From Promethearchaeota archaeon (GTDB lineage: Archaea > Asgardarchaeota > Lokiarchaeia > Sigyniarchaeales > SOKP01): a DNA stretch of 64,000 nt. A program made the translations under genes and the position numbers. The stretch is taken from contig RDOA01000002.1 in assembly GCA_011364925.1 (NCBI GenBank), positions 96,001 to 160,000 on the forward strand, given 5' to 3'. This document shows positions 1,682-7,497 of the stretch, one piece after another. The notes under the pieces are model-generated. The model was not told the origin of the DNA. It ran no database searches and saw only the letters and a program-made list of their open reading frames with translations. Numbering within the stretch: position 1 is the first letter of the stretch; the number at the start of each line of letters is the position of its first letter.

Positions 1682-2251
1682 CTATTTTCCTTTAGAATTA
1701 TATACTAGTTCTGCGATTTTCTGAAATACAATTTTTACATTCTCACCAGTAAGTGCGGAAGTTTCGAAATATGGTGCGTTAAGTTTATCGCTTAAGTGTT
1801 CTGCCATTGGCAAAATTATCTTCCGTTCCTCTTTTAAATCTATTTTGTTCCCGATTAAAACTCTTGGCACTCCACTAAGACCATACTTAACCGCAGTATT
1901 ATACCAGTTGTTAACGTTACTAAATGTGCTTGAACGCGTAGTATCGAATACTAAGAGTATTCCGTCTGCTCCATTGAAGTATGGGCGATGTAGCATATAA
2001 AATTGAGGTTGTCCAGCGATATCCCAAAACATTAGATTTACTGTGGCGTCCTTTTCCTTTAATTCGATTGTTTCTTTTAATATTGAGACTCCAACGGTTG
2101 GTAAATACTTATGCTCGAATTGATTTGTTGCGAAATTTGTAAGAAGGCTTGTTTTTCCGACTGCAGGGTCTCCGATTACGATAACTTTATAAATCGCCTC
2201 AGTTTTTCCTTTAAAAACAATGCTTCCTTCTTTCTTCTCGTTATCGCTCAT
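1682..2251 (-). CDS. Rab-like small GTPase with canonical motifs
   Basis: G1 GDPAVGKTS, G2 PTVG, G3 WDIAGQ, G4 NKID, G5 ETSAL; no C-terminal prenylation cysteines. Confidence 0.95.
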   Translation of the reverse strand: MSDNEKKEGSIVFKGKTEAIYKVIVIGDPAVGKTSLLTNFATNQFEHKYLPTVGVSILKETIELKEKDATVNLMFWDIAGQPQFYMLHRPYFNGADGILLVFDTTRSSTFSNVNNWYNTAVKYGLSGVPRVLIGNKIDLKEERKIILPMAEHLSDKLNAPYFETSALTGENVKIVFQKIAELVYNSKGK

Positions 2252-2392: not shown

Positions 2393-3031
2393 TCAATTTT
2401 TTACATCTAATTTTTTAACCCAAAAATCAATTTTCTCCCCTAAGTGAACCTCTAAACTCTTTGAAGATTGTTCGTTATTATCGATTATATCTTGTAGCGA
2501 ATTAGCAGAATCCAACTGAGTTAAGATTTGTGAAATCTCATACAGCATTTTATGACCACCAGTAAATTCGTAGATATCTTCTTTAATTTGCTCTAAAATT
2601 GCTTTTACCGCTTGAGGTTCGCTAAAGCTACTTAGATTAGTTTTTAGGGCGCTTAACTGATTCAATATCAAATTTTTTTTGCTTGTTGCTGATTCATCTC
2701 TTTCAATTGCATTCTCGACTTCTTGTTTTTTTAACGGGAGAGACTTTAGATTCATTATCAGCGATTTGATCAAATTTAATTCATCTTCCACCTGCTTCTG
2801 ATTTTTAATTACATTCGTCAATTGCGGGGTTAATCCCTTAATTTCAATAGTAGATTTGTGCAATTCTTCAACCATATCAGTTAACTGTGTGATCTTCAGA
2901 TTAGTTTGTCCCATTTTAGTAATAATATCTAAACCAAATTTCTCTAATATTAAGGAGAAAGAAGTCATCTTCTTCTCTAACTCATTTAGAGATTTCTCCA
3001 AATCTTCTCCATTTGAACTCATTGATTTCAC
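2393..3031 (-). CDS. Hypothetical coiled-coil protein with a C-terminal helical domain (..KIDFWVKKL)
   Basis: Heptad-rich N-terminal half; C-terminal ~95 aa align by eye with the C-terminus of 58108..60288. Confidence 0.75.
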   Translation of the reverse strand: MKSMSSNGEDLEKSLNELEKKMTSFSLILEKFGLDIITKMGQTNLKITQLTDMVEELHKSTIEIKGLTPQLTNVIKNQKQVEDELNLIKSLIMNLKSLPLKKQEVENAIERDESATSKKNLILNQLSALKTNLSSFSEPQAVKAILEQIKEDIYEFTGGHKMLYEISQILTQLDSANSLQDIIDNNEQSSKSLEVHLGEKIDFWVKKLDVKN

Positions 3032-3204: not shown

Positions 3205-4098
3205 GTGATTACCTTGATTCAGTATATTAATATCCTCACTCGTGACGGTAAATCATTATTATTTAGGAATTATGGTAGTTCAGATGTCGATAGAGATTTG
3301 TTAGCAGGATTTCTGAGCGCGTTCTCGGGTTTCATGAAAGAGATTAGCCAAAGCGATATTAAATCCACAGCTACTGACGAATTCAAATATTTTTACACGA
3401 TTATAGAGGAGATTTTAATTGTGGTGTGTGCAGATCTAACTGATGAAGATGCAGCTATAAACACGAAAATTACTACTATTAAAGTAAAATTTGTCGAAGA
3501 ATATGGTAAAGTTATAAAAAGTGGGGAATGGTCAGGGAATCGCACAATATTTGAGGGGTTTGGACGTGAACTTGATGATGTTATTCTCGGAGAGATTAAG
3601 GTGTCAATACTTGGCCTGGGCGGTGTTGGCAAAACGACCCTTCTACGATTAATTTGTGGGGAAAAGATAAACTTAGAATATCAGCCTACCATAAATGTAG
3701 ACATTACTAATTATGATGGGGCAGAGATTGGAGTAAATCGTTCTATTATGCTATGGGATTTTGCTGGTCAATCTAATTATCGAGCCCTCTGGCCAAGTCT
3801 ACTCGATAGTACTGACATAGTTCTATTAGTGCTTGATTCTAGTTACGAATCTTTAAATCCCACTAAAGAGATTCTACGAGATATTTTGGAAAAACATTAC
3901 AAAGATACACTAGTTATTGGAATTGCAAATAAGCAAGATTTACCCAATAGACTTACGCCTAAATTCTGCGAGAGAATTCTTTCCGAGGTTAGAAAAGATC
4001 CTCCAATTCAAGTTTATGATATGGTGGCAATTGATCCAAATTATCGAGAAAAAATTCGCGCAATTCTAAGAGACGCGATAAGTAAAGTGTACCAATAG
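3205..4098 (+). CDS. Longin-domain + Arf-like small GTPase fusion
   Basis: N-terminal longin pattern (IQYINILTRDGKSLLFRNY..DLLAGFLSAFSGF), then GLGGVGKTT, PTI, WDFAGQ, ANKQDL; GTG start. Confidence 0.9.
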   Translation: MITLIQYINILTRDGKSLLFRNYGSSDVDRDLLAGFLSAFSGFMKEISQSDIKSTATDEFKYFYTIIEEILIVVCADLTDEDAAINTKITTIKVKFVEEYGKVIKSGEWSGNRTIFEGFGRELDDVILGEIKVSILGLGGVGKTTLLRLICGEKINLEYQPTINVDITNYDGAEIGVNRSIMLWDFAGQSNYRALWPSLLDSTDIVLLVLDSSYESLNPTKEILRDILEKHYKDTLVIGIANKQDLPNRLTPKFCERILSEVRKDPPIQVYDMVAIDPNYREKIRAILRDAISKVYQ

Positions 4099-4125
4099 CT
4101 AAAATGTTCTAAGAAAGAAGAATTT

Positions 4126-4659
4126 CTATTGCTCTTTAAACTCGTATACTAATTCCGCGATCTTTTCAAAGACTTCTTTAACATTTTCTCCAGTAACTTC
4201 TGATGTTTCGTAATACAGAGCATTTATTTTTTCGCTTAAATGTTCAGCCATAGGAAGAATAATCTTCCTTTCTTCTGTTAAATGGCTCTTGTTTCCGACT
4301 AAGATTTTTGGTATATCTCTTAATCCATATTTCACAGCTGAACTATACCAGTTGTTAATATTACTGAACGAGCTTGAACGCGTGAGATCGAATATTAAAA
4401 GCATACCATCAGCTCCGCTGAAATACGGACGATGTATCATATAAAATTGTGGTTGTCCAGCGATGTCCCAAAACATCAGGTGAACTCGGGTGTTGTATTT
4501 CCTAAGCTCGACTGATGTTTTTAAAATTGAAACGCCTACGGACGGTAAATGCTTTTCCTCAAACTCCTTTTCGGTAAATTTAGTGATAAGTTCCGACTTA
4601 CCAACTTGTGGGTCTCCTAAAACTATAATTTTAAAAAGTGCTTCACTTTTAGCTGACAT
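4126..4659 (-). CDS. Rab-like small GTPase with variant G4/G5
   Basis: GDPQVGKSE, PSVG, WDIAGQ, NKSH, ETSEV; paralogue of 1682..2251. Confidence 0.92.
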   Translation of the reverse strand: MSAKSEALFKIIVLGDPQVGKSELITKFTEKEFEEKHLPSVGVSILKTSVELRKYNTRVHLMFWDIAGQPQFYMIHRPYFSGADGMLLIFDLTRSSSFSNINNWYSSAVKYGLRDIPKILVGNKSHLTEERKIILPMAEHLSEKINALYYETSEVTGENVKEVFEKIAELVYEFKEQ

Positions 4660-4757: not shown

Positions 4758-4964
4758 TTATCGGGATTGTTTGATATTCTCAATTGATTGCGACATCAGA
4801 GTTAATTTTCCCATGATATGGCTAAAAAAGTTTGAGATTATGTCTTCAATTTGGCTAGTTCTCATTAGAATTGCCACTGCTTCGCTGTAGGTTTTACAGC
4901 CATTAACTTCTTTTATTTTTTTAAGATCGTTTTTTATTTTTTCATTCAAATCGATTGTAGGCAT
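4758..4964 (-). CDS. Small ribbon-helix-helix-like DNA-binding protein
   Basis: MPTIDLNEKIKNDLKKIK...KTYSEAVAILM resembles archaeal RHH/VapB-type proteins. Confidence 0.6.
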   Translation of the reverse strand: MPTIDLNEKIKNDLKKIKEVNGCKTYSEAVAILMRTSQIEDIISNFFSHIMGKLTLMSQSIENIKQSR

Positions 4965-5111: not shown

Positions 5112-5999
5112 ATGACAATTGATTGGAGTTTTATTGAACAAAATTATAAAAAACCTGTAAAAGTTAAAGTTGAGGCTCGTGATCTAATGGATTTACGTGC
5201 TAAAGTTAACGATTTAGAAAAGCAACTGACGGATACAAGGAAGGAATTAAATAGAACACAGAATACTCTTAAATCTACGAGCACTAGCCTTGAAAATACA
5301 ACAAACGAATTAAAAAACACAAAAACAAGCCTAGATAAAATTAAAGCAGAACTTAGTGTTACTAAATCTAAATTAGTTCAAACTTCCGCTGATCTCGATA
5401 GCTCAAACTCTAAAGTAAGCGAACTTAAAGAGTTAATCCCTAAACTCGATATCGCAAACTCTAAAATAAGCGAGCTTGAAGGAAAGATCGAGGGACTTGG
5501 TGGTACGATTTCAGATCTCTCTTCTGAATTAGAATATTCTAAATCAGAAATACAAGGCTTAGAAGGAGCTGCTTCAGAGAGTAAAGAACAACACGATGAA
5601 TTGGCTGCCGAAAATCAAGAATTAAATAGCAAACTAATCATTACTCAAGACGAAAATACCTCCCTAAAAAATCAATTAACGGACCTAAATAACGAATTAC
5701 TTCAAAAAGACACAAAACTTAGAGAATTCACCGATTTGATCCACGATAAAGAAAAACTAATCAACGATCAGGCTGCTCACTTAAAAGAAGTTGAAGACGA
5801 GTTAAAAGAACTAAAACAAAGTAATGAACCTAATTTGGGACACCCCTTTGAAACACGGATTATTTGCCCTAGGTGTCAAGCTGTGGGAAAAGATATTAGA
5901 GAAGTCGAGGACAGAAAAAAGGTTCTTCGTCCTGGTCCTATTCCAATGTATGCTAAAAAATATGTCTGTAAAAAATGTGGATATGATTGGAATAAGTAA
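5112..5999 (+). CDS. Long coiled-coil protein with a C-terminal zinc ribbon
   Basis: About 210 aa of heptads, then CPRC...YAKKYVCKKCGYDW. Confidence 0.85.
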   Translation: MTIDWSFIEQNYKKPVKVKVEARDLMDLRAKVNDLEKQLTDTRKELNRTQNTLKSTSTSLENTTNELKNTKTSLDKIKAELSVTKSKLVQTSADLDSSNSKVSELKELIPKLDIANSKISELEGKIEGLGGTISDLSSELEYSKSEIQGLEGAASESKEQHDELAAENQELNSKLIITQDENTSLKNQLTDLNNELLQKDTKLREFTDLIHDKEKLINDQAAHLKEVEDELKELKQSNEPNLGHPFETRIICPRCQAVGKDIREVEDRKKVLRPGPIPMYAKKYVCKKCGYDWNK

Positions 6000-6039: not shown

Positions 6040-6900
6040 TTGTTTAACTTGATTAGATATATAAATTTTCTGACTCAAGCTGGTAAATCAGTATTATTCC
6101 GAAATTATGGATCCTCGGACATTGATAAAGGCTTAACGAAAGAAATTTTAAATATTTTTAAAGTTGCAAGCCAGAATGAAAGTGAAATTACAATTAATAT
6201 TACAGATGAATTCAAATATTTTTCTGCCACGATTGGTGAATACATAATTATAGTTTGCACCGATCTCGAGGACGAAAATGCTATTATCAAGTCCAAAATT
6301 CACGCCCTTAAGACAAAATTTAACAAAATAATAAGTAAGAATTATGAATTAATTCATGAATTTGAGCAAAATCTTGATGATATTATTCTTCCACCAATAA
6401 AAGTTGCGATTGTTGGTTTAGGGGGGACCGGTAAAGAAGAATTAATTCAATTAATCTGTGGAGAACAAGTGAACTTAGAATATCAACCGACTATAAACGT
6501 GGATCTTTCGAATTTTGATGGAACAGAGATCGGAGTAAATCGGACTATTATGCTATGGGATTTTCCTGGTCAATCTAATTACAGAGCTCTCTGGGCAAGC
6601 TTACTCGATAGGACTGATATAGTCCTATTAGTACTCGATTCCAGCTATGAATCTTTAAATCCTACTAAAGACATACTTCGCGATATTTTAGAAAAAAATT
6701 TCAAAGATAAACTAATTATCGGTATCGCAAACAAGCAAGACTTACCCCATCGACTCACGCCTAAATTCTGTGAGAGAATGCTTTCAGAGGTAAGAAAAGG
6801 CCCTCCAATTCCAGTTTATGGTATGGTTTCAAGTGATCCAGCCTATCGAGAAAAGATCCACGCAATTCTAAGAGACGCGATAAGGAAACTTTACCCATAG
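6040..6900 (+). CDS. Longin + small GTPase fusion with a degenerate P-loop
   Basis: Close paralogue of 3205..4098; G1 GLGGTGKEE, G3 WDFPGQ, G4 NKQD; TTG start. Confidence 0.88.
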   Translation: MFNLIRYINFLTQAGKSVLFRNYGSSDIDKGLTKEILNIFKVASQNESEITINITDEFKYFSATIGEYIIIVCTDLEDENAIIKSKIHALKTKFNKIISKNYELIHEFEQNLDDIILPPIKVAIVGLGGTGKEELIQLICGEQVNLEYQPTINVDLSNFDGTEIGVNRTIMLWDFPGQSNYRALWASLLDRTDIVLLVLDSSYESLNPTKDILRDILEKNFKDKLIIGIANKQDLPHRLTPKFCERMLSEVRKGPPIPVYGMVSSDPAYREKIHAILRDAIRKLYP

Positions 6901-6927
6901 CGGATAATTTTCAAAAAATAAATATTT

Positions 6928-7497
6928 CTAATGCTCCTTAAACTCATATACTAATTCTGCGATCTTTTTAAAAACTTCTTTAACATTTTCTCCAGTAACT
7001 TCGGATGTTTCATAATATTGCGCATTCAATTTTTTGCCTAGATGTTCAGCCATCGGATGTATAATTTTCCTTTCTTCTGTTAAATGAGTCTTGTTTCCTA
7101 TTAAAATTCTTGGAATTCCACTTAAACCATATTTCACAGCTGTATTAAACCAATTATTAATGTTACTGAATGTACTAAAGCGTGTAAGATCGAACACTAA
7201 AAGCATACCGTCTGCTCCGTTGAAGTAAAGGCGGTGAAGCATGCAGAACTGAGGTTGACCGGCGATGTCCCAAAACATTAGATTTACTGTAACATCCATA
7301 TCTTCTAATTCAATAGTATCTTTTAAAATTGAGACTCCAACCGTTTGTAAATACTTTTCCTTGAACTGATAAGTAGCAAAATTCGAAAGAAGGCTTGTCT
7401 TTCCAACTGCGGGGTCACCGATTACAATAATTTTATAAATTGCTTCAGTTTTCCCTCTAAAAACGATGCTTCCTTCTATTTGCTCGTAATCACTCAA
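6928..7497 (-). CDS. Rab-like small GTPase with variant G4/G5 (mosaic of the other two copies)
   Basis: GDPAVGKTS, WDIAGQ, NKTH, ETSEV. Confidence 0.92.
   Translation of the reverse strand: MSDYEQIEGSIVFRGKTEAIYKIIVIGDPAVGKTSLLSNFATYQFKEKYLQTVGVSILKDTIELEDMDVTVNLMFWDIAGQPQFCMLHRLYFNGADGMLLVFDLTRFSTFSNINNWFNTAVKYGLSGIPRILIGNKTHLTEERKIIHPMAEHLGKKLNAQYYETSEVTGENVKEVFKKIAELVYEFKEH

Follow-up and report, generated by a model that had tools for sequence, protein, structure and literature searches.

The locus and its GTPase genes

We describe here a group of unusual small GTPases encoded near the start of a 64,000-nucleotide stretch of DNA from a Promethearchaeota archaeon (contig RDOA01000002.1, positions 96,001 to 160,000; hereafter the window), and in particular RabB and its paralogue RabC, in which the aspartate of the G4 motif NKxD, a residue that reads the guanine base, is replaced by histidine (NKxH). 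Asgard archaea show a prokaryotic expansion of the Ras superfamily that is thought to be the source of the eukaryotic trafficking GTPases, and GTPase paralogues abound in their genomes; in eukaryotes, atypical GTPases and pseudo-GTPases are frequent. Five small-GTPase genes lie within the first 7.5 kb of the window, three of them Rab-like and transcribed from the minus strand (RabA, RabB, and RabC) and two of them fusions on the plus strand (RbGTP1 and RbGTP2), and all five products match Pfam Ras/Arf/Roc models (Table 1). RabA is the orthologue of the single Rab copy that is kept in conserved synteny across the genus, where the gene order is PUA, LigT-like, Rab (NKxD), CC1, RbGTP, and phosphoglucomutase-like. 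In the genome from which the window derives, an extra block consisting of RabB, s68 (an open reading frame [ORF] of 68 amino acids), CCZn, RbGTP2, and RabC is situated between RbGTP1 and the phosphoglucomutase-like gene.

Table 1. Genes of the Rab / coiled-coil / RbGTP locus, with positions in the window.
Gene	Position	Strand	Product
RabA	1682..2251	-	Canonical Rab-like paralogue, NKID / ETSAL (GNKIDL / ETSALTG)
CC1	2393..3031	-	Coiled-coil protein, 212 aa; member of the ancestral Rab / coiled-coil / RbGTP module
RbGTP1	3205..4098	+	N-terminal longin/roadblock-like region and Arf/Rag-like GTPase (GKTT, DFAGQ, NKQD)
RabB	4126..4659	-	Rab-like GTPase, 177 aa, NKxH type
s68	4758..4964	-	ORF of 68 aa in the extra module; no Pfam match
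CCZn	5112..5999	+	Coiled-coil protein, 295 aa, with zinc-ribbon-like CxxC...CxxC at its end; inside the extra module
RbGTP2	6040..6900	+	Duplicate of RbGTP1 (64% identity), P-loop GLGGTGKEE and DFPGQ
RabC	6928..7497	-	Rab-like GTPase, 189 aa, NKTH / ETSEV

Altered base-pocket motifs in a Ras-type fold

An earlier note on this DNA, made from the sequence alone, had read the paired G4 and G5 motifs as NKID/ETSAL in RabA, NKSH/ETSEV in RabB, and NKTH/ETSEV in RabC, with the G1 Lys-Ser/Thr and the G3 DIAGQ intact in all three proteins, and the ORFs bear this out. RabB has GNKSHL and ETSEVTG, with His126 encoded by CAT (4282-4284) and Glu154 by GAA (4198-4200), and RabC has GNKTHL and ETSEVTG, with His138 (CAT, 7084-7086) and Glu166 (GAA, 7000-7002). 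RabA has GAT and GCA codons at these sites, so that one transversion in each (GAT to CAT for the histidine, GCA to GAA for the glutamate) accounts for the two changes. All three proteins retain G1 in the form GDPxVGK[ST] (GDPQVGKS in RabB and GDPAVGKT in RabC), as well as the G3 WDIAGQ and the catalytic Gln. In RabB, moreover, the P-loop Ser is directly followed by Glu23, and the switch-I Thr is replaced by Ser40; the switch-I Thr is present in RabC, and the acidic residue after the P-loop is absent from it. The locus contains a matched set of paralogues, with RabA canonical, RabB carrying all three of the changes that form the signature discussed below (G4, G5, and the position after the P-loop), and RabC carrying the C-terminal two.

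RabB and RabC are members of the Ras superfamily by both profile and fold. The Pfam Ras profile (PF00071) matches RabA, RabB, and RabC with E values of 1e-41 to 1e-46, and the scores of RabB and RabC are 140.9 and 143.5 bits respectively (curated cut-off 21.6). The best match in a phmmer search of the PDB is the Thorarchaeota Rab 7ezb (E 3e-32), and in this alignment the RabB His lies opposite the Asp of NKVD and the Glu lies opposite the Ala of SSAL. The AlphaFold2 model of RabB (predicted local distance difference test 80.5, predicted template modelling score 0.81) has its strands and helices in the canonical Rab order, and the top Foldseek matches are all Rab/Ypt proteins, with template modelling scores of ~0.8 and E values of ~1e-15, the nearest folds being Ypt32, Rab27, Rab11, Rab1, and the Thorarchaeota Rab. 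By motif, RabB and RabC nonetheless fall outside both the NKxD definition of G4 (they have NKSH and NKTH) and the SA[K/L] definition of G5 (both have SEV). The prenylatable C-terminal Cys of eukaryotic Rabs is absent, the two proteins ending in ...VYEFKEQ and ...VYEFKEH, and it is also absent from RabA and from other Asgard Rab-like proteins. Neither protein shows the loss of the P-loop Lys or Ser/Thr, or of phosphate or Mg ligands, by which a pseudoGTPase is recognized. Judged by its residues, the base pocket of RabB and RabC is clearly altered, with the phosphate, Mg, and catalytic residues kept.

The Thorarchaeota Rab (7ezb/7ezd/7eze; PMC10933270) is similar to RabB and RabC in its size, its G1 to G3 motifs, and its lack of a prenylation Cys, it is one of the top fold matches, and it occurs in genomes that carry roadblock/longin-GTPase fusions (PMC10933270). 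It differs in having canonical NKVD and SSAL motifs, in contrast to the NKxH and SEV of RabB and RabC and to the Glu that follows the P-loop in RabB. Longin- and roadblock-GTPase fusions were reported by Tran et al. in 2024, with no mention of such pocket variants (PMC10933270).

A conserved and recurrent subfamily

The family to which these proteins belong was assembled from two protein searches together with the genomes of the genus, covering metagenomes and metagenome-assembled genomes, and has 187 distinct members, of which 141 have Asp and 44 have His at G4. Members are present in 35 of the 42 species genomes of the genus, and NKxH genes in four of the 42 (G000, G014, G008, and G044). The window's own genome (3.9 Mb in 112 contigs) has approximately 65 small-GTPase ORFs, among which a rough regular-expression scan finds NKxH only in RabB and RabC. 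Taking a broader sample of 198 G domains (150 cluster representatives), His is present at G4 in about 13, most of which belong to this family and a few of which are distant. RabB has relatives at 82-84% identity in other assemblies (P0002 and P0003), and P0008, the nearest relative of RabC, which shares 73% identity with the RabB query, also comes from another assembly; within the genomes of the genus a close RabB orthologue was not found, the best match being 73% identical. A search of the literature yielded no paper describing NKxH GTPases. The NKxH subfamily is a set of natural, conserved, atypical small GTPases that has not been described before.

The earlier note had held that the altered motifs are not a product of decay, and had named restriction to this one genome together with relaxed selection among the observations that would speak against its reading. 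Our data support the claim, in that the NKxH proteins make up a subfamily that recurs, is conserved, and is subject to purifying selection, with 44 distinct His-type proteins that average ~70% identity and are spread over several genomes and assemblies. Over the 60 C-terminal codons common to RabB and RabC, the nonsynonymous divergence (dN) is 0.069 and the synonymous divergence (dS), which is unsaturated here, is 0.71, giving a dN/dS of 0.10; the ratio for other pairs, in which dS is saturated, is 0.04-0.13, and all of these values derive from paralogue pairs. Mean per-site entropy is 0.63 bits in the His-type and 0.55 bits in the Asp-type proteins, a comparison that is indicative, as the groups are defined by the His itself. 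The competing view that RabB and RabC are decaying duplicates on their way to becoming pseudogenes could draw on the patchy occurrence of the form in the genus and on the faster evolution of the His-type copies, whose dN to other copies is 0.15-0.24 compared with 0.07-0.10 among canonical orthologues. However, the reading frames are intact, orthologues are present in other assemblies, the entropy is close to that of the canonical proteins, and the selection data (dN/dS ~0.1) contradict it; we regard this view as very improbable and have rejected it.

RabC is a mosaic of RabA-like and RabB-like parts

RabB and RabC share the His/Glu pair as a result of gene conversion, and did not evolve it independently. 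The front of RabC, to about residue 87, is RabA-like, and from about G4 onward the protein is RabB-like. Over the first 75 alignment columns the RabC DNA is 82-83% identical to RabA and 58-69% identical to RabB, and from column 121 on these relationships are reversed, with 82-86% identity to RabB and 69-73% to RabA; the same division is seen at third-codon positions. RabB and RabC are therefore not independent carriers of the pair. A log-odds scan identifies further mosaics like RabC (P0008, P0018, and P0035), and P0007 is a reciprocal mosaic with a His-type front and an Asp/Ala back. From the presence of both kinds among metagenome proteins we conclude that canonical and NKxH paralogues have repeatedly undergone gene conversion with one another.

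The G5 alanine is released where the G4 aspartate is lost

The His and the Glu of RabB and RabC were proposed in the earlier note to be a co-adapted pair that exchanges a charge between two neighboring base-pocket residues, and the family as a whole does not support this. The distribution of G5 residues among the relatives is clearly not random. All 141 proteins with a G4 Asp have Ala at G5. Beside a G4 His (n = 44) it is Thr in 21, Ala in eight, Glu in five, Pro in four, Asn in two, Ile in two, Asp in one, and Ser in one, and thus departs from Ala in 36 of the 44; the five sequences with Glu are all in the RabB/RabC lineage. On a tree built without the signature columns and with the Asp rows dereplicated, the 43 His rows show at least 15 changes at G5 and the 55 Asp rows none, at a similar summed terminal branch length (6.1 against 7.4), and beside His G5 is the most variable of the G-motif positions. 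Because G5 is variable only beside His, and at similar branch length, the constraint on the G5 Ala is conditional on the G4 Asp and is released once the Asp is lost, and Glu is one of many residues that are tolerated there.

The residue that follows the P-loop is a more consistent partner of the His, and it had escaped the earlier note. It is Ser in 132 of the 141 Asp-type proteins and Glu or Asp in 36 of the 44 His-type proteins, the exceptions among the latter being largely mosaics, so that an acidic residue at this position tracks the His more consistently than does G5. The catalytic Gln is kept in all 44 His-type proteins and the P-loop Ser/Thr in 34 (it is lost in ten), and most also keep the switch-I Thr and the G3 Asp. 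The remodelled pocket that the note had envisaged thus stands insofar as the base pocket is altered with the phosphate, Mg, and catalytic residues kept, but not as a fixed His/Glu unit.

Relatives that have lost further residues

A number of relatives depart further from the canonical motifs. A side branch with the motifs GKV, WNIAGQ, and NKSH (P0061, P0093, P0138, and locus L011 of genome G008) is without the G3 Asp and the P-loop Ser/Thr, and P0054 and P0055 have likewise not kept the P-loop Lys/Ser-Thr or other phosphate or Mg ligands. The more diverged cluster representatives have NNxH at G4, Arg, Gly, or Lys in the P-loop, and Lys or His in place of Gln61, and some lose Lys117, Thr35, or Gln61. 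Two loci, L064 (G054 contig C112) and L066 (G044 contig C116), have lost G4 entirely (GIKKE and GINND) and have EVSL at G5, and yet retain GDPxxGKTE, the switch-I Thr, and WD.xGQ, so that the phosphate site survives without the base site. One natural relative, P0043, has NKAN and STL.

These losses bear on whether RabB and RabC might themselves be nucleotide-free pseudo-GTPases, serving as constitutive scaffolds or as decoys for the partners of RabA. PseudoGTPases have divergent G motifs within an intact G-domain fold, a description into which the GKV / WNIAGQ relatives fit, and the loss of P-loop Ser/Thr and G3 Asp in that branch, of Lys117, Thr35, Gln61, or the whole of G4 in other relatives, and the GKEE P-loop of the partner RbGTP2 speak for such a role. 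However, RabB and RabC retain the G1 Lys and Ser/Thr, the G3 Asp, the catalytic Gln, and the G4 Asn-Lys, and so differ from pseudoGTPases in keeping all phosphate, Mg, and catalytic residues; most of the His-type proteins have the P-loop Ser/Thr, and conservation of catalytic residues would not be expected if no nucleotide were bound. We consider this explanation unlikely for RabB and RabC.

Loosened nucleotide binding as the favored reading

The reading that we favor, by analogy with characterized mutants and with our confidence about evenly balanced, is that RabB and RabC would be low-affinity switches that are independent of a guanine nucleotide exchange factor (GEF), and possibly base-promiscuous, within a Rab / coiled-coil / longin-or-roadblock-GTPase module that has been duplicated; what we infer here concerns their kinetics, their preference for a base, and their relations to regulators. 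Duplication of the module would have given rise to RabB and RabC, with RbGTP2, the partner GTPase in the duplicate, also losing its P-loop Ser/Thr, and RabC would then have gained its RabA-like front by gene conversion. Guanine-specific base reading would have been given up and the phosphate, Mg2+, and catalytic machinery retained, leaving as a signature the G4 Asp to His change, the release of the G5 Ala (to Thr, Pro, Glu, Asn, and others), and usually a change of Ser to Glu or Asp after the P-loop. These three pocket changes may weaken the grip on the nucleotide base, and fast exchange without a GEF would lead to a mostly triphosphate-bound state, which could be controlled through hydrolysis or a GTPase-activating protein (GAP), through expression or abundance, or through partner binding. 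Discrimination between bases would probably be loosened as well, because His can be either a hydrogen-bond donor or an acceptor. With the G1 Lys and Ser/Thr, the G3 Asp, the Gln, and the G4 Asn-Lys in place, RabB and RabC presumably still bind and hydrolyze a nucleoside triphosphate (NTP), and the adjacent longin/roadblock-GTPase fusions are candidate regulators of the NKxH Rabs.

The analogy rests on mutants at the same three pocket positions. In Rac1, the C18D substitution at the residue after the P-loop makes the protein insensitive to GEFs and its GDP release ~200-fold faster, while hydrolysis and the response to GAPs are preserved (PMC13236570). In Ras, intrinsic nucleotide release rises and the pocket is destabilized when Asp119 or Ala146 is substituted (PMC8916776), and fast cycling, with a base pocket that is opened or altered, is seen in RHOA A161P/V and KRAS A146T (PMC11339415). 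In this group, which includes Rac1 C18D, Ras D119X, KRAS A146T/P/V, RHOA A161P/V, and RAC1 A159V, the demonstrated effect is fast, GEF-independent exchange with hydrolysis retained, and the likeness of the NKxH proteins to it is one of sequence. The known fast-cycling systems are eukaryotic point mutants, or natural variants such as RhoU and RhoV that are altered at another residue (Phe28 to Tyr), whereas in the NKxH proteins, a natural archaeal subfamily, the changes have become fixed and are conserved, and G4 carries a His. That all three changes correspond to known fast-exchange mutations, and that the diverged relatives lose still more binding residues, argues for binding that is loosened rather than redirected. 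The earlier note had listed the use of ATP, or of the xanthosine or inosine triphosphates (XTP or ITP), and constitutive fast exchange as possible outcomes of a remodelled pocket, and by this analogy the last of these appears to be favored.

Several considerations weigh against this interpretation. The association of G4 with G5 is statistically inseparable from shared ancestry, and, with the two positions only 28 codons apart, ancestry and physical linkage explain much of it; the IQ-TREE backbone is weak, well-supported branches provide only one phylogenetically independent G4/G5 contrast, and recombination blurs the tree. The His may have had a single origin. It is retained, moreover, in 30 of the 32 members of the main tree-defined group, which suggests a positive role for the His and not a mere loss of Asp. 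The kinetic argument is drawn from eukaryotic Ras and Rho point mutants, and a pocket that has evolved for as long as that of the NKxH proteins may have compensated. To our knowledge the G4 D-to-H substitution itself has not been characterized. Part of the subfamily could be heading toward nucleotide independence, judging from the residues lost, and RabB and RabC could already be poor binders.

It is also conceivable, though in our estimate doubtful, that RabB and RabC are near-normal GTPases, GTP-selective and GEF-dependent, in which the His accepts hydrogen bonds from guanine N1-H and N2-H and the G5 backbone NH reads O6. A backbone contact at G5 is independent of the side chain, the G4 Asn-Lys, the stacking Phe (seven residues before the switch-I Thr/Ser), and the G5 Ser are invariant or nearly so, and conservation across the subfamily is high overall. 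Against this, essentially every substitution tested at these positions in Ras and Rho raises nucleotide release, and an Ala that is invariant beside Asp and released beside His indicates that the constraints on the pocket have changed.

Finally, the pocket could have undergone a true switch in base specificity to prefer ATP (or XTP or ITP), with the His donating a hydrogen bond to adenine N1, and the N6 amino group donating to acidic or polar residues at G5 and following the P-loop. There is a precedent in SpoIVA, an ATPase of the TRAFAC class derived from the GTPase Era, in which loss of the G4 Asp (NSxR) together with an acidic G5-loop residue (SxE) sets the preference for ATP, and the same two changes made Era prefer ATP (PMC7952092). 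SpoIVA resembles RabB and RabC in the altered G4 Asp, the retained G1 to G3, and the presence of an acidic residue in the G5 loop, albeit at a different position (PMC7952092). The donor and acceptor logic also suits adenine, since N1, which together with N6 is what ATP-binding proteins mostly recognize, is an acceptor in adenine but a donor in guanine (PMC11594714). Retention of the P-loop, switch, and catalytic residues suggests that some NTP is probably bound and hydrolyzed, and the strong retention of the His across the subfamily fits as well. However, G5 beside His is variable and often a non-acceptor (Ala, Pro, and Ile in eight, four, and two of the 44), leaving no fixed recognition residue, and the Glu of RabB and RabC is at the position of the Ala and not at the SxE position of SpoIVA, where the Glu lies one position later. 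RabC lacks the acidic residue after the P-loop and yet has a close relative, P0008, in another assembly, and relatives progressively lose further pocket residues. SpoIVA differs further in having lost the G4 Lys, and in being a polymerizing cytoskeletal ATPase and not a Ras-superfamily switch, and its G5 residue has no fixed counterpart in the NKxH proteins. The D-to-N mutants specific for xanthine nucleotides (Ras D119N, EF-Tu D138N, and Rab5 D136N) are similar in that the G4 Asp becomes a hydrogen-bond donor, but there the residue is Asn and not His, the change is engineered and not natural, and G5 is unchanged. We think a change of base preference in RabB and RabC improbable, and we are similarly skeptical that the NKxH clade as a whole would be a natural Ras-superfamily lineage that has switched from guanine to adenine or base-indifferent nucleotides through three concerted pocket changes. 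Were the ATP reading true, this would be the first Ras-like ATP switch of natural origin, found in the closest archaeal relatives of eukaryotes, and mosaics such as RabC would be natural pocket-swap experiments.

Returning to the fast-exchange reading, it touches on the question of how such switches were controlled before there were dedicated GEFs and GAPs, for which the NKxH subfamily, situated beside longin/roadblock-GTPase fusions, is a concrete candidate example of an archaeal switch that is GEF-independent or base-promiscuous.

The extra module and its partners

The two RbGTP genes are each convergent with an NKxH Rab gene, RbGTP1 with RabB and RbGTP2 with RabC, and both spacers are A/T-rich and exactly 27 nt long (4099-4125 and 6901-6927). 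These identical spacers suggest that the RbGTP/NKxH Rab pair was duplicated as one unit. The N-terminal longin/roadblock-like regions of RbGTP1 and RbGTP2 are without a Pfam assignment. RbGTP2 is likely a pseudo-GTPase, because of its P-loop and DFPGQ motifs (Table 1), and about 20 of its relatives also have a P-loop without Ser/Thr, in which GK is followed by E, N, R, D, Q, or G; these include RbGTP2 orthologues at 93%, 75%, and 72% identity. As far as motifs can tell, both GTPases of the extra module, the Rab and RbGTP2, are non-canonical.

Two Rab-type proteins, P0002 and P0008, and the 93% RbGTP2 orthologue (P0144) are each recorded with a longest contig of 23,296 bp, which suggests that the extra module is also present in a second organism, with the orthologues of RbGTP2, RabB, and RabC perhaps co-located. 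In the other genomes, the neighbors of NKxH Rabs have none in common with the window's module and the genes sit in unrelated neighborhoods, and a scan of metagenomes for related loci found only RbGTP1-type loci, at 55-59% identity. Lys-rich and zinc-ribbon tails that resemble the end of CCZn are fused to NKxH Rabs elsewhere, and we considered a Rosetta-stone link between CCZn and the tails of these long Rabs; the similarity is not significant, the best BLASTP match having an E value of only 0.008 over 94 residues, and the link was rejected. The 68 aa ORF is, judged by eye, a candidate ribbon-helix-helix protein.

Long, tandem, and otherwise variant forms

Long forms of the NKxH proteins are numerous, and include L031:5340-6653 (G014), L034:5167-6045, P0142, P0126, P0127, P0047, and P0051. 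After the G domain they have a short conserved motif, K-L-I-I-K-P-Y-x-G-E, followed by Lys-rich low-complexity sequence, and their tails terminate in a zinc ribbon (CxxC...CxxC) in some cases and in hydrophobic segments that probably span the membrane in others; these hydrophobic tails could be membrane anchors that do not depend on prenylation. A GPP34 homologue (Golgi phosphoprotein 3, PF05719, E 2e-11) is encoded at L031:8440-9048 (G014 contig C233), ~2 kb from the gene for a 437-aa NKAH Rab-like protein.

A tandem duplicate of the canonical Rab-like gene is present in several genomes of the genus; it has Glu at the position of the G3 Asp and keeps the NKVD and SAL motifs (L003:2207-2776, L005:2316-2885, L006:737-1306, L043:740-1309, and L052:1000-1569). 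By their motifs these copies appear to be another recurrent class of paralogues, with an alteration at a predicted Mg-site residue. In other proteins two Rab-like G domains are arranged in tandem (P0121, P0122, P0123, P0128, and L065 on G045 contig C54), and one of the two domains is strongly degenerate, with G4 either NxxN or lost, SL or SI at G5, and the switch residues replaced.

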